This document shows, one piece after another, positions 15,283-22,130 of a DNA stretch of 64,000 bases. The translations under genes and the position numbers were made by a program. Source of the stretch: Rotaria sp. (lineage: Eukaryota); assembly GCA_905250055.1 (NCBI GenBank), contig CAJNOF010000004.1:951250-1015249 (forward strand). Reading direction: 5' to 3'. The notes under the pieces were generated by a model. It had not been told where the DNA came from. It did no database searches and saw nothing but the letters and a program-made list of their open reading frames with translations. Positions within the stretch are counted from its first letter, which is position 1, and each line of letters opens with the position of its first letter.

Positions 15283-15715
15283 GATATTTGTTTTATCTTT
15301 AATTTGTGTTTCCAGATCATTTATCATAAAAGCAATTGGATCAGCTGGTCGATTAAGTACGATTTTTGTTGTCAAGGCCTAAAAAATATGAAGACTAACA
15401 GATAAATATTTAAGTTAAAAATAAAAAACCTACTTTAAGTAAGTCATATAATCCATGTTGCATCATATATTTATCAGCTAGAATATTTGGATCTTCATTT
15501 TGTATTGTTTTTTGTAAAATAGTATCAATTTCTTCATCAGTTGCTTCTTGCTGTTCTCCATTTGCATTCAGAGTTATTAAGCCAAGCATTTGTAAACGTT
15601 TACGTTGTTCAGAATGTAAATTATTTATATCAGTTTTCTCTTTTTTTGATTCAATAAAACGATCATTATGTAATGATTTTACATTTGACCATTCAGTCTT
15701 CTGTTCATCTGACAT
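15283..15715 (-). CDS. Small protein with a C-terminal RIIa/DPY-30-like dimerisation-docking helix pair (2 exons)
   Basis: Exon 1 15434-15715 (MSDEQKTEWSNVKS...DEEIDTILQKTIQNEDPNILADKYMMQHGLYDLLK, donor gtaggt). Exon 2 15283-15378 (ALTTKIVLNRPADPIAFMINDLETQIKDKTNI, TGA stop). The C-terminal ~45 aa resemble RIIa/DPY-30/MYCBP-type docking domains (hydrophobic heptads, conserved Pro). The start lies 106 bp downstream of the HINT stop. Confidence 0.45.
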
Positions 15716-15821
15716 TTCAAAAATCTAAAATAACGCTATGTCTAATAATATCAATACTAATACAAAAAAATGAAATTTAGTTTTTTGTTTTATTCCAAAA
15801 AGAAAAGAAAAAGTTTATTAG

Positions 15822-16485
15822 TTAACCAGGTGGCCAATCGAGTTGTCTACCACCAAGAACATGAATATGAAGATGATAAACACTTTGACATGCATTTCGT
15901 CCATTATTAATAACTAAACGATAACCATCATCAGCTAGACCTTCTTTATTAGCAACTTGTGCAGCAACAATTAATAAATGACCAAGTAACTAAACGAAAA
16001 AGAAAATAAAATAATCATTCGAAATGAAATTAATGAATGTTATTTACTTTTTCATGTGATGATGTACAAGCTGATAATTGTGGGATAGGTTCTTTTGGAA
16101 TAACTAAAAAATGTGTCGGTGCTTGTTGATTTACATCATGAAATGCTACACACTAAGTTTAAAGTATGCTCTATTTAATTTTACATTTATAAAAGAAAAA
16201 ATAAAACCTGATCATCTTCATAAAGTAAATCAACTTTAATTTCTTTTCGCGCAATTTTTCCAAATATTGTATCTTCTATCGGCTTAGCTGTTTGTGCTTT
16301 GACTACTTCATCGGATATCGATTTTTTAGCTGAACAATCTGAAATATTTGATTTTTCTATTAATGCAGATTTAATTCATTAATTAACTCACAAGGAGGTG
16401 AAAATGAGAAATATGCATATGAACTATAACGATGTACAGTTGCTACTGAAGCTAAACTTAATAAGCCTCGTACAACAGCGGACAT
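15822..16485 (-). CDS. HINT: Histidine triad nucleotide-binding protein (HINT1/2-like), 4 exons
   Basis: Exons ~16440-16485 ([17 protein letters not shown].., presequence-like), ~16200-16340 (..[26 protein letters not shown]), ~16046-16150 ([28 protein letters not shown]), 15822-15988 ([55 protein letters not shown]). The HxHxHxx histidine-triad motif HLHIHVL is present. AATAAA lies immediately 3' of the stop. Confidence 0.85.
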
Positions 16486-16587
16486 TTAGACTAAATTTGT
16501 CTACAATACAAACAGATTAAATACAGTTCATAATCAATGAAATGAGAAAACTTTATTTATTTGAAAGAACAAAAAAAAAATAAATGT

Positions 16588-17900: not shown

Positions 17901-18046
17901 CTACAAATCAAGAGCATCAAGAAACATAAAATAATCTTGTAGATTTTAGAGGAAAAAAAAAACGATTTTCTGTATAATCATCATTTAGCGTGAATAGGCA
18001 AAAAAAATATTTTACAATAATTTTACACATCATATTCTATTGTTCA

Positions 18047-21000
18047 TATTGATTCGGAATCTGTATTAATAGATACTGGATTATTTTCCATCTCATCTTT
18101 CTTTTGTCGACGATATTCACAGTGAAAAAATAAAATGAAACAAATGACTAGAATAACCGAAAATATTGCCAAGATATACACAGGAACTACAAAATAAAAA
18201 ATTTTGAAACATCTTCTATAAAATATATATATTTAAAATACCAGAATAATCTCGAATATCATTAATTTTTATATCTTGAGCTTCACATTGTTGAATACTC
18301 ATTTGATGAGCTGATGGTGTACGCGAAAAATTTGGTAAAATAATAATAGCAATAATGCTTCCCAATTGACTAAATAAAATCGAAATTTGTTATTTATATA
18401 AACAAAAACACTAGATTTCTTTATGACTTACCTGGCAACCAAAAAAATACCTGAAACAGTAGCTTCTGGTACTGGATGAGTTCTAAAATAATTGACAATT
18501 ATATCATTTTATGAAAGTCAAAACATTGATACACCTACGTTTCAATACTTAGATCCAGACTTAATGGAAGTACTGGTGCATTAGTTAAACCAGCTAGAGC
18601 AAATATAAAATAAAGCCAATAAGATTTTACTTCGTTGACGATGAACTACTTGTCAATAAAATCAATAAAAATTTTGTAAATTAATTTTTCATTTTCTACT
18701 TACTAATCCAATACAGAGCAGTGAAATAACTCCAATAGAATATAAAATTTTTGCTAGTTCTTCTAATTTTTTTGTTTTATCCGCTATAATTCCCATAACA
18801 ATACATCCAATGAGACCAAATATAATAAAACAACCAATACATAAACCTACAGCTATATCATTATAACCAAATGGACACATTATTTGTTGTAATAATGTTG
18901 AAAGTGTGTTGTTATTTGATAAACCAATGCCAACAGTAAAAAATAAGATTAAATATGATTTTGATGTTAAAAGCTAAATAGAAATCAACGAAAATCTCTT
19001 TGTTGTTTTCAATCAAAAACAAAACAAAATCCTACTTTTTTAAAAACTAATTTATATGGACTTTTTACATCTAGAGAAGATAAACATGATGGTGTTGGTG
19101 GTTGTGATGATCGAACCGTCAATGATAAAAATGCTGCAAGAATAGCTGGTATCAATGATAGATAGAGCTAAATAAAATCAATTTGAATAAAAAAACATCA
19201 TTAAAACTAAAGTGGATCACAAAAGTTTAAGACATTTTTTTGTTTCGGTGTTTTCTACGAAATGAAAGAAAATAAATCATATATTTTGATTGCCATATAA
19301 AGCTAGAGTTAAGATTTACGCAAAAGATATATTCCTGACCTAATTGATTGTAGCATGAAGAAAAAGAGGGATACTTCAAATTTTCCATAGTAGATAACAG
19401 TTTAAGATACTTTTAGTATTCTGTTGATTATATCGTTATGGAAAAATAGAGACAATTCTCAAAAATATACCATTAGATGCAGAATTGAATGAGCGATATA
19501 TTAATACGGAAAGCTTTCTAAATTATTAATTACTAACTAAGAAAATGTTTTCTTTTCTAAGTTTTGATGTTCTAGTTTCATATTAGAAAGAGCATTGAAA
19601 ACTGAATAACATTATGTACTTTTGTTTTGAAATAATTCTTTATAACAAGACTTTTTTATATACTAATTAAAATTTAAGTAGTTTCCTAATAATAATGATA
19701 AGAAAAGTGAACTGTAAGCATAGACTTGAGAACTGTAAAAAATAGTGCATTTTGTAGAGCCAATTTTGTTTGACCTAATGAAATACTCTACCTTTCTATG
19801 CAATGTGCTCCTCATGGGATATAGCACTCGATAAATACTAAGCTATGGTGTAAGAAAAAAAAATGGTTGAAAATCATCGTTAATATTAGTGAACAAAGAT
19901 GAAACAGTTGTCTCAGATGATGAATGTTAGGGTCGTTCGGGTTGATCTTGGTCCGAAAATTTTGGAACAGACAGATTTTAATGGACAAGGTCTATGTTTA
20001 GAACTCATTAAACAAAATTATACAGTATTATTCAATTTTCAATGCTCTTTCTAATAAAATACTTGAAGATCAAGATTTATAAAAAAAACATTTCTCTAGT
20101 CTGTAATTAATAATATTAGATTATTACAACTATAATCGTTTGATATCAAATTTAGGTTGACAAATGGTGTATTCAATTACTTCTCCTGAAACGAATTTTT
20201 ATTATTTCACCATTACATTTGAATGTTTGCTAGAAGACATTATAAATTATAGAATGGTGTCATATAACTAACAGATTATTGAATTGAATTTATGAAAGTT
20301 TGAAAGAAAATATGCATACAAAATAAACTGTAACATAAGCTTTTCAAATTTATATATTTTATATAGATGATAATATGTTTGTAGAGGAAAGTAATATCTT
20401 TAATATCTATCAAGCAGTCAAAGAATCAAGTCTAAATGTGTTTTTTTCTGATATTTGTATGCAATAAAAATTATTGAATATTATCATTTTCTTCTTTTTT
20501 TTTATCGACTTCTTCGTGATTCTTTGCTTTTTTATTATGATCTATAAATTCCTTGAACAAAGGATAATCATTAATCAGCTGTCTCAGCATCTATGAGAAA
20601 ATACACTTCCTTCTTTGACCATCTCACTTATTACTCGTCATGTTTAGCAGCATCCTTAATGAACATTCAGTTTGAAAATCAATTTTTATTTCTTTTATAA
20701 TGATGCGAATAAGAACAATTAAATAAATTGCTATTTACAGACAATAGTTCAATATTCAAACAAGAAAAATATAAATGCGTAATATTGATATGAAAAAATC
20801 AAGATAAGATAAGTGTCACGACTGCATGAGTCATCGCTTCTATTTAGTGATAATTGTCACCTTTTAAAATAAGGCTAATTCTATCGGATTCGGGCTTCTA
20901 TATGACCGTAGTCATAATATAGAATAAATATGTTTTCTTGCTTACAAGAAAATAGAAAAGAGCCAAAAAAAGAATCGAAAATTTATTACACTTAAACGTA

Positions 21001-22130
21001 GACTATTCAATTCTTTTTCTAATGATATACTTTTAACAATTGTCTCTATTTTTCGATATCAATATAATCACCAACATACTGAAAGTATCGTAAACCTTTG
21101 CGTGCTAGAGAAAAATTAAAGTTCATGCTACTATCCGTTAGATCTAGTATGGGTACGTTACATAAACATTGACTCCAACTTTATATAGCAATCAAAATAT
21201 ATGATTCACCTCATTTCTTTCCATAGAAAACATCGAAGTAAAAGATGTCTTAAACTTTTGTAGCCTACTTTAAATAGAAAATACTAACTAATAAAGGCAT
21301 TTTATCTTCACGTGGAACAATAATTGGTGGTAGAACAGTTCCAAGAAAAACACCCAGAAAATTAGCTGAAAAAAAAAGTTCACACATCATAATATAAATT
21401 TTATATTTTTTTTTCTTACCTGCAAAACAAAGACTAGTTGCTAAAGTTCGTTGACTTTCTGGAAACCACGAAAAAGCAAATTTCGCTGGAATAAATAATG
21501 TAAATGTTTGCGCAAATGCACAAATAAATTGTCCTATTTGAATTAAAATCAATATTACAAAATAAAGTACTAGAAAATATGTATCTAAAATTAAAAAAAA
21601 AATTTACTTACCGACAAAAACAATTGGATATCGACTTTTAACTGATACAAATCCCCATGTACTTATGACACGAAAACATCCACCAATTAAGTTCATCCAA
21701 ACACCAGTTAAAATCTAAATAAAAAAAAAAATAATTCTCATATCTTAGTTTAATTTCTTTTTGAAGACTTACTCCAAATCGAATACCAAATTGATCAATA
21801 GCCCATGTTGATGGTATCGTAAAAATACTACAAACTACCATAAATATAAGCGAAAGCCAATTAATATCTGCATATGAAACATTAAAATAATTTTTTGCTA
21901 AATTAGCAATTGAAGCAAAATTAATCCATAACTACAACAAAACATATTTTTACAATAGGGAAAAAAGATACAAACTAAAATCTTACAATAGCATTTGACA
22001 TATTGGCTAAACATATACATACTAAATAAAGCCATCGTCGTCTGTAGACTTTAAATTCAGTCGGTGTCTCCTCTACTGTAGATGAAGAAGAAATTTCATT
22101 AGTAATAGCGCCGTACATCTAGAAATTGCA
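18047..22130 (-). CDS. MFS transporter of the FLVCR (feline leukemia virus subgroup C receptor / heme-choline transporter) family, copy A, ~13 exons
   Basis: Exons include MYGAITNEISSSSTVEETPTEFKVYRRRWLYLVCMCLANMSNAI (start 22130), DFASIANLAKNYFNVSYADINWLSLIFMVVCSIFTIPSTWAIDQFGIRFGVSL, GQFICAFAQTFTLFIPAKFAFSWFPESQRTLATSLCFAG, ANFLGVFLGTVLPPIIVPREDKMPLL, a ~2.1 kb intron, then LYLSLIPAILAAFLSLTVRSSQPPTPSC.., ..MCPFGYNDIAVGLCIGCFIIFGLIGCIVMGIIADKTKKLEE.., and a last exon ending TDSESI* at 18047. The blocks align to FLVCR1 ([67 protein letters not shown]). Confidence 0.75.

Follow-up and report, generated by a model that had tools for sequence, protein, structure and literature searches.

A candidate spliced-leader operon carrying PPIL3, CRIPT and HINT in bdelloid rotifers

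A compact cluster of five minus-strand genes

The window analysed here, a 64-kb stretch from Rotaria sp. (GenBank assembly GCA_905250055.1, contig CAJNOF010000004.1, positions 951,250 to 1,015,249), contains five tightly packed genes on its minus strand. These genes had been proposed, from the DNA sequence alone (the original prediction), to form an operon whose polycistronic RNA is resolved by spliced-leader (SL) trans-splicing. We built explicit spliced models on the minus strand. They gave, in 5' to 3' order (positions are those of the window), an FLVCR-like MFS transporter (18044-22118; 11 exons, 471 aa), which is possibly the first gene of the unit, PPIL3 (cyclophilin-like 3; 17246-17900; 4 exons, 161 aa), CRIPT (16588-17160; 6 exons, 100 aa), the HIT-family gene HINT (15822-16485; 4 exons, 165 aa) and, as the last gene of the cluster, a small RIIa/TEX55-like gene (15280-15715; 2 exons, 126 aa). 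The five genes and their order were thus as predicted, on the evidence of the spliced models, of annotated proteins and of Pfam, the latter being weak for the RIIa-like gene.

The four models that were looked up matched, in every letter, annotated proteins of Rotaria sp. Silwood1, namely PPIL3 (CAF0772176.1), CRIPT (CAF0772158.1), HINT (CAF0772140.1) and the RIIa-like gene (CAF0772122.1), and a 471-aa MFS protein (CAF0772193.1) is annotated on the same 5.49-Mb contig as the other four. Pfam assigned MFS_1 (E 6e-34), Pro_isomerase (E 7.5e-56), Cript (E 2.7e-33) and HIT (E 3e-28) to the first four products. The RIIa-like product gave weak matches to Tex55 (E 2.9e-4) and RIIa (E 0.046), both below the cut-offs, and weak PDB matches to the RIIa-type proteins RSP11, FAP385 and EFCAB10, which are ciliary proteins. 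PPIL3 was 76-78% identical to animal PPIL3, with 99-100% of the length matched, N-terminal residues included; no rotifer PPIL3 was returned by this homology search, which seems to filter by length, since a joined RIIa-like, HINT and CRIPT query yielded proteins of 215-634 aa only. The N-terminal extension of HINT resembles a mitochondrial presequence, as in HINT2. A cyclophilin, CRIPT and a HINT with a presequence-like extension are genes of the housekeeping type usual in operons. Searches of the window with Rfam (gathering thresholds) and for tRNAs gave no matches.

The window is AT-rich (~25-30% GC round the cluster), with GT..AG introns of ~50-60 bp. Those of the five models are all GT..AG and measure 48-78 bp, except for one of 2121 bp in the MFS gene. 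This intron 5 (21288-19168), which has a counterpart of ~60 bp at the same place in Adineta vaga while the other MFS introns of the window are 54-78 bp long, is bounded by imperfect terminal inverted repeats of ~285 bp (19208-19490 and 21005-21272) that are 74-85% complementary; the insert is probably a non-autonomous DNA transposon.

The spacers between each stop codon and the next ATG measured 143 nt (MFS/PPIL3), 85 nt (PPIL3/CRIPT), 102 nt (CRIPT/HINT) and 106 nt (HINT/RIIa-like). The last three values were as predicted, and the 146 bp given earlier for the first had counted the stop codon. The MFS/PPIL3 spacer (17901-18043, minus strand, like all that follow) is the longest and holds six upstream ATGs in the window copy. 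The AG of its acceptor-like sequence CTTGATTTGTAG (17912-17901) abuts the PPIL3 ATG, and its conserved blocks are TGTAAAA(T) (~18016-18004), a GCCAGATGAT-like element (17992-17975) and the palindrome AATCTACAAGATT (17946-17932). The PPIL3/CRIPT spacer (17161-17245) contains AATAAA (17228-17223), a T-run and the acceptor-like TTGTTCTAG (17200-17192), whose TTCTAG is followed by an (ATA)n-rich leader of 31 nt (17191-17161) before the CRIPT ATG. This predicted leader is nearly all (ATA)n microsatellite (ATAATAATAATAATAATAATAATAA); the leaders of the other lineages, 20-33 nt long, are A-rich and unrelated to it. In the CRIPT/HINT spacer (16486-16587), AATAAA (16557-16552) precedes a T-rich block, and the acceptor-like TGTATTGTAG (16510-16501; TTGTAG) follows, 15 nt before the HINT ATG. 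In the HINT/RIIa-like spacer (15716-15821), the AATAAA predicted to follow the HINT stop was present twice (15819-15814 and 15794-15789), together with a TTGAT block that is conserved; the acceptor-like TTATTTTAG (15733-15725) precedes the RIIa-like ATG by 9 nt. Three of the four spacers thus hold AATAAA, MFS/PPIL3 being the exception, and the likely terminal poly(A) signal of the unit, AATAAAATAAA (15205-15215), lies 64-69 nt past the RIIa-like stop. Acceptors had been expected 0-15 nt before each ATG. This held for PPIL3 (0 nt), HINT (15 nt) and the RIIa-like gene, for which the distance had been put at 11 nt, but not for CRIPT, whose TTCTAG lies at 31 nt.

A YAG close to an ATG is common in DNA of 27% GC and has little meaning by itself. 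The 366 nt between the best acceptors and the start codons were free of ATG, whereas 20 ATGs occurred in the 1333 nt lying upstream (~5.5 expected in 366 nt; Poisson P ~0.004). Leaders can therefore not reach far upstream without taking in upstream AUGs. A 3'-splice-site weight matrix derived from 22 local introns scored the spacer sites at 3-11 and real introns at 5-13, values that are compatible with acceptors and not discriminating alone.

Conservation of the cluster and its spacers among bdelloids

Six loci were compared: the window, Adineta vaga (chromosome CP075497.1; L003), the Logan assembly L007 and the ENA metagenome-assembly contigs L006, L009 and L010, those of the relatives being retrieved via the neighbouring kinase gene. 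The five genes had identical order and strand in all six, at a locus GC content of 28-50%. Spacer lengths ranged over 130-166 nt (MFS/PPIL3), 64-90 nt (PPIL3/CRIPT), 92-130 nt (CRIPT/HINT) and 85-112 nt (HINT/RIIa-like), and the mean column identity of the spacer alignments was 47-58%.

Each of the four downstream acceptors (YAG 0-33 nt before the ATG) was kept in six of six loci. The YAG directly abutted the PPIL3 ATG in every locus. With a slash marking the end of the acceptor, CRIPT had TTCTAG/ATA or TTGTAG/ATT 20-33 nt before its ATG, HINT an invariant TTGTAG/A at 5-20 nt and the RIIa-like gene TTTYAG/AT at 8-20 nt, again in all six. The MFS acceptor TTTCTAG/ATG abutted the start in five loci and lay 2 nt upstream in L009. 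A TTGAT-type block that fits a branch point was located 15-30 nt upstream of several acceptors. Little as the presence of a YAG means, its conservation is meaningful, because four acceptors were kept in all loci within diverged spacers. Invariant columns fell mainly in the 3'-splice-site elements (TTGAT-like block, pyrimidine tract, YAG) and in the poly(A) signals. AATAAA was found in the CRIPT/HINT spacer in 6/6 loci, 37-56 nt ahead of the AG, in the HINT/RIIa-like spacer in 4/6, and 62-79 nt past the RIIa-like stop in 5/6. As a negative control we used the divergent kinase gene, which requires its own promoter; no conserved AG preceded its ATG.

Fusion of neighbours by automatic annotation is typical of operon genes, and the cluster offers several cases. 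MFS and PPIL3 are annotated as one model (MFS_1 plus Pro_isomerase) of 543 aa in Silwood1 (L001) and of 626 aa in A. vaga (L003). HINT and the RIIa-like gene are joined into 293 aa in Silwood2 (P0231), the proposed RIIa acceptor being used as the end of a cis-intron, and two Rotaria sordida HINT models (P0374 and P0376), at 293 and 310 aa, are as long as such a fusion would be. Taken literally, these models would mean that MFS-PPIL3 and HINT-RIIa-like are each a single protein made through a stop-skipping intron. We consider this extremely improbable: separate start and stop codons are conserved for every gene in the six lineages, the match of PPIL3 to its animal counterparts covers 99-100% of the length from the N-terminal residues on, the source assembly annotates PPIL3, CRIPT, HINT and the RIIa-like gene separately and lists the 471-aa MFS protein, and stop codons and spacers are retained in the RNA-derived contigs described below.

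A Didymodactylos carnosus contig extended just 1.2 kb upstream of the kinase gene and carried no cluster genes, so that it was uninformative. In the monogonont Brachionus calyciflorus (L008, CAJNOC010002942.1), the single HINT homologue recovered carries an annotation that fuses it with a WD40-repeat gene downstream; CRIPT, PPIL3 and an RIIa-like gene were not adjacent to it. At this one locus at least, monogononts do not share the cluster.

Sister assemblies differed from the window at two places. In L001 (GCA_905331515.1, Silwood1), positions 3048-3259 are an inverted copy of the PPIL3 3' exon (window 17468-17257), joined inside the RIIa-like gene at window 15450, which truncates that gene to 104 aa. 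The contig of a third assembly (L002) starts at the same position, window 17257. This break at the cluster end is either a haplotype-specific rearrangement or an assembly artefact. In addition, 7.6 kb of the window (25445-33057), of raised GC content (30-38%), is missing from the otherwise 99.9% identical L001. L010 has, in the equivalent position, a counterpart of a 165-aa open reading frame (ORF; 25921-26418) located within these 7.6 kb, so that L001 more likely has a deletion or an assembly gap.

Polycistronic RNA-derived contigs and the question of separate promoters

An exact-sequence cluster look-up recovered full-length CRIPT and HINT proteins, derived from the Joint Genome Institute (JGI), on contigs of 1030 and 919 bp. 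The first (L114; JGI 3300056984, 1030 bp) comprises the C-terminal exon of PPIL3 with its stop, a 70-nt spacer carrying TTATTCTAG/ATA, an intron-free CRIPT, a 90-nt spacer carrying AATAAA and TTGTAG/A, and an intron-free HINT. The second (L115; JGI 3300030568, 919 bp) comprises an intron-free CRIPT, an 88-nt spacer and an intron-free, full-length HINT, and its 3' end lies 10 nt beyond the AATAAA that follows the HINT stop. All five CRIPT introns and all three HINT introns were gone from both contigs, the exon junctions agreed with the gene models of the window, and the stop codons were kept. Aligned to a virtual cDNA in which the exons of the window were joined and the spacers kept, each contig formed a single block, with 85.5% (L114) and 89.6% (L115) identity. 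The two were 87.5% identical to each other and therefore come from two species and two samples, of Rotaria-like bdelloids. Genes with five and three introns fit on such short contigs only as cDNA. From the loss of these eight introns we infer that L114 and L115 are spliced polycistronic RNAs spanning the PPIL3/CRIPT and CRIPT/HINT junctions. Read-through polycistronic precursors had been named in the original prediction as something to look for.

The RNA forms recovered were all cis-spliced yet unresolved, and one ends at a poly(A) signal. This would also be expected of stable polycistronic mRNAs that are never resolved, their downstream ORFs being translated through reinitiation or leaky scanning, as happens in certain dicistronic animal genes without an SL. 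Such a scheme appears very unlikely. It would leave the poly(A) signals and the 3'-splice-site-like elements of the spacers without a role, and the upstream ORFs have 100-165 codons, long upstream ORFs being unfavourable for reinitiation. Moreover, bdelloids have an abundant SL system (PMC1925144). The recovery of unresolved forms is also biased, as monocistronic mRNAs of 400-700 nt may miss the contig-length cut-offs.

SL trans-splicing in bdelloid rotifers has reportedly been known since 2005, the original paper being that of Pouchkina-Stantcheva and Tunnacliffe in that year. The leader has 23 nt, GGCTTATTACAACTTACCAAGAG (PMC3795323), and is trans-spliced onto >50-60% of mRNAs (PMC1925144, PMC4824033); in monogononts, it was not found in one expressed sequence tag study (PMC1925144). 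The conserved acceptors, taken with this published trans-splicing, suggest that the SL is added at the conserved AGs of the cluster. Neither the SL sequence nor an SL gene was present in the 64-kb window. A search of the metagenome collection for the SL tail joined to the PPIL3 start gave no match, the collection being almost purely genomic and the result thus uninformative. In a general scan with an exact SL1-type 20-mer, to which variants are invisible, 163 of 167 matches were SL RNA genes and 2-3 were SL-capped transcripts; since nearly all matches were SL RNA genes, the targeted negative carries no weight. The SL RNA genes (metagenome contigs L011-L113) were often arranged head-to-head: in 43 pairs the leaders were separated by 136-141 bp, and in 33 of these the gap was exactly 138 bp. 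This near-fixed gap suggests a shared compact bidirectional promoter.

Taken together, these findings make it likely that PPIL3, CRIPT and HINT form a bdelloid-rotifer operon, transcribed as one polycistronic pre-mRNA, and this RNA is probably resolved by the SL. We further infer that the RIIa-like gene probably, and the MFS gene possibly, belong to the same unit. The predicted five-gene operon has thus gained RNA support at its two inner junctions, in relatives, and the membership of the two outer genes stands at the lower strengths just given. Several features expected of an SL-resolved operon were found. The same-strand genes are separated by 64-166 nt in six loci, short of the ~250-500 bp below which such genes are considered closely spaced; co-transcription is seen in related species through L114 and L115; a 3'-end signal lies within the spacers overall, MFS/PPIL3 lacking any hexamer; and an SL system exists at the level of bdelloids, both as published and as 163 SL-RNA-gene-like copies in environmental contigs. 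As for a single promoter, only the conserved palindromes of the MFS/kinase gap and of the MFS/PPIL3 spacer hint at promoters.

Other observations weigh against an operon. L114 and L115 are assembled contigs from relatives rather than reads of this strain, they span only PPIL3/CRIPT and CRIPT/HINT, and L115 goes no further than the poly(A) signal of HINT. The same contigs could be produced by read-through from independent promoters or by untranslated regions (UTRs) that overlap. No SL-joined cDNA of the cluster genes was found in the scans, which covered a nearly all-genomic collection. The PPIL3/CRIPT hexamer is canonical only in the window, with variant hexamers elsewhere, and in A. vaga the TATAAATA located ~28 nt before the AG of this spacer could also be read as a TATA box that precedes a transcription start. 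AATAAA or any other poly(A) hexamer is absent from the MFS/PPIL3 spacer in all six lineages, and additional blocks are conserved there, among them a palindrome in which L006 carries a compensatory change, so that MFS may form a unit of its own. The genome is compact in general, with only 78 bp between the MFS and kinase start codons in the window, 85 bp in A. vaga and 58-87 bp in three further loci. Finally, Rotaria and A. vaga are collinear over ~40 kb, from ~10 to ~50 kb of the window. The gene order, whose conservation in relatives was to be checked, is indeed kept in six bdelloid loci, but with the whole region collinear it is not specific to the cluster. Gene order alone was therefore dropped as evidence for an operon, and it is the constrained spacer lengths and signals that count.

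These points would be accommodated if the cluster were a row of compact independent genes, each with its own small promoter in the spacer or in the gene upstream, and if the contigs had arisen from read-through or from overlapping UTRs merged by the assembler. The conserved AGs might then still be SL acceptors, for monocistronic outrons, and in other phyla most trans-spliced genes lie outside operons. Promoters can evidently be tiny, as judged from the divergent start codons; the A. vaga TATAAATA, the palindromic and E-box-like blocks conserved in the MFS/PPIL3 spacer and the collinearity reaching well past the cluster speak for the same explanation. Independent genes nevertheless seem rather unlikely to us. 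Spacers of 64-112 nt also have to house a 3' UTR, a poly(A) signal, an acceptor and a 5' leader, which leaves ~10-30 nt, and the three short spacers have little that is conserved beyond processing signals. Two independent contigs are continuous over spacers where mature mRNAs would not overlap. Furthermore, six lineages show constrained spacer lengths, in contrast to at least one other same-strand gap, that between LSM and an MFS paralogue, which varies (approximately 1 kb in the window and 183 bp in A. vaga). The earlier assertion that the cluster could not work as five independent promoters was nonetheless too strong, given a 78-bp divergent pair in the same genome.

This divergent gap (22119-22196; 78 bp) extends from the MFS ATG (22118, minus strand) to the ATG of an NMNAT-kinase gene (22197, plus strand) and is likely to be a bidirectional promoter region. 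It holds TTTCTAG (22125-22119), which abuts the MFS ATG, and the palindrome ATTGTGCAAT (22134-22125). The motif TTGCGCAATTT(T)CTAG/ATG is kept in five of six loci, and an ATGAAAT-type block and a ATTGCGCAAT palindrome are also conserved in the gap. Promoters at this locus can therefore be tiny or sit inside neighbouring genes. The palindrome of the MFS/PPIL3 spacer, AATCTACAAGATT (also AATCTAYAAGATT), lies ~35-45 nt before the PPIL3 ATG and has homologous sites in L003, L006 and L007; in L006 it reads CATCTTCAAGATG, a joint change of both arms. L009 and L010 lack it, and the window shows no enrichment for it. It may act as a hairpin or as the site of a dimeric factor, and the possibility of an internal promoter before PPIL3, within the MFS/PPIL3 spacer, deserves to be taken seriously. 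Two motifs considered as promoter candidates, ATCTNNAAGAT and TTGCGCAA, were discarded for their lack of enrichment in the window.

The gene on the other side of the gap (22197-23684, plus strand) is intron-less and encodes an NMNAT domain (CTP_transf_like) fused to a protein kinase domain. Its 495-aa product is 100% identical to a protein of Rotaria sp. Silwood1. The source-named matches with both domains were all bdelloid (Rotaria, Adineta, Didymodactylos, to 46% identity) and the rest environmental, while the next matches were kinases only. The gene looks like a bdelloid-specific domain fusion.

Proposed processing and comparison with known operons

In the mechanism that we propose, the ordinary 48-78-nt introns would be removed by cis-splicing, and the upstream cistron would be cleaved and polyadenylated within each 64-166-nt spacer, the signal being AATAAA in most. 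The downstream cistron would gain the 23-nt SL GGCTTATTACAACTTACCAAGAG and its cap at a trans-splice site made up of a conserved branch-point-like block and a pyrimidine-rich YAG, 0-33 nt upstream of the AUG. The leader (...ACTTACCAAGAG) is predicted to join at 17900 (PPIL3), 17191 (CRIPT), 16500 (HINT), 15724 (RIIa-like) and 22118 (MFS). The downstream genes would depend on an upstream promoter, located presumably either in the 78 bp between MFS and the kinase gene or internally, in the MFS/PPIL3 spacer. Since only one bdelloid SL has been described, the single-SL mode of tunicates and flatworms would apply, rather than the SL2 mode of Caenorhabditis elegans.

The window contains a second tight same-strand junction on the minus strand, where the stop of the MFS paralogue (36146-36144) is separated by a spacer (36042-36143) from the ATG (36041) of a gene with F-box and Cyclin_D1_bind domains. 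This spacer measures 102 nt (58 nt in A. vaga), has TTTTTTTAG abutting the F-box ATG and lacks AATAAA. The A. vaga annotation joins the two genes as one 778-aa model. The pair may be a second operon in the window. A 1.7-kb gap within the MFS paralogue, considered as an intergenic spacer, turned out to be an intron.

A variant of the proposed mechanism, which we regard as distinctly improbable, is that bdelloid operon transcripts persist as cis-spliced, polyadenylated polycistronic RNAs, with a trypanosome-like coupling at the junctions that have no hexamer. Intercistronic processing would then be slow or regulated, for example held back in dormancy and released on rehydration. The coupling of 3'-end formation to downstream trans-splicing would, by analogy, apply at the MFS/PPIL3 junction and at that between the MFS paralogue and the F-box gene. 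If true, this would amount to a hybrid of nematode and kinetoplastid modes in an animal.

Rotifers had been counted, in the original prediction, among the phyla with SL-resolved operons. The literature searched reports none: operons are stated as not reported in rotifers in one paper (PMC7986045) and listed as 'ND' in another (PMC2481426), and a 2025 paper names rotifers loosely beside operon-bearing phyla (PMC12460157). No report of rotifer operons was found in the searchable literature, subscription journals being outside its scope, so that an earlier report is possible. The cluster would be the first concrete operon described for rotifers, and a deeply conserved test case with RNA support. 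If the proposal is true, Rotifera joins the few animal phyla with operons, which bears on whether SL trans-splicing regularly yields operons. Public bdelloid annotations would wrongly fuse operon neighbours, distorting gene counts and surveys of domain architecture. The idea that recovery from growth arrest is faster with operons (Zaslaver et al. 2011, as cited in PMC12460157) would become testable in bdelloids, which repeatedly enter and leave anhydrobiosis. SL-based expression of downstream genes without promoters of their own would also be relevant to the use that bdelloids make of horizontally acquired genes.

The proposed unit resembles the SL2-type operons of C. elegans described by Blumenthal and colleagues. 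In both, co-oriented, housekeeping-type and functionally unrelated genes lie ~100 nt apart, with an intercistronic AAUAAA, a U-rich stretch and a trans-splice acceptor near the downstream AUG, and internal promoters are possible. C. elegans differs in using SL2 for downstream genes, whereas one 23-nt SL has been described in rotifers. Poly(A) signal and acceptor are closer together here (~20-65 nt) than in C. elegans, and SL use in the present cluster is deduced from its acceptors.

Tunicates (Ciona, Oikopleura), flatworms (Schistosoma, Echinococcus) and chaetognaths (Paraspadella; PMC12460157) use one SL for first and downstream genes, as we propose for bdelloids. Their operons share with this cluster very short intercistronic regions and a housekeeping-biased content; for genes on one strand to be recognised as such an operon, they have to be spaced by less than ~250 bp and to have SL evidence. 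These animals belong to other phyla, with SLs of unrelated sequence. Ciona operons have almost no intercistronic region, whereas the spacers here measure 64-166 nt and most have a recognisable poly(A) signal.

In trypanosomatids, SL trans-splicing and the polyadenylation upstream of it are coupled in resolving polycistronic RNA, a mode that the hexamer-free MFS/PPIL3 junction would fit. However, trypanosome units hold tens to hundreds of genes, with essentially no cis-introns or per-gene promoters, and all mRNAs are trans-spliced, whereas the cluster described here is small, with many cis-introns and AATAAA in most spacers. Dicistronic genes outside SL systems, such as stoned and SNURF-SNRPN in insects and mammals, resemble L114 and L115 in having at least two ORFs on one spliced, polyadenylated RNA. 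They differ in that no acceptors or poly(A) signals lie between the ORFs and in that their hosts have no SL system.

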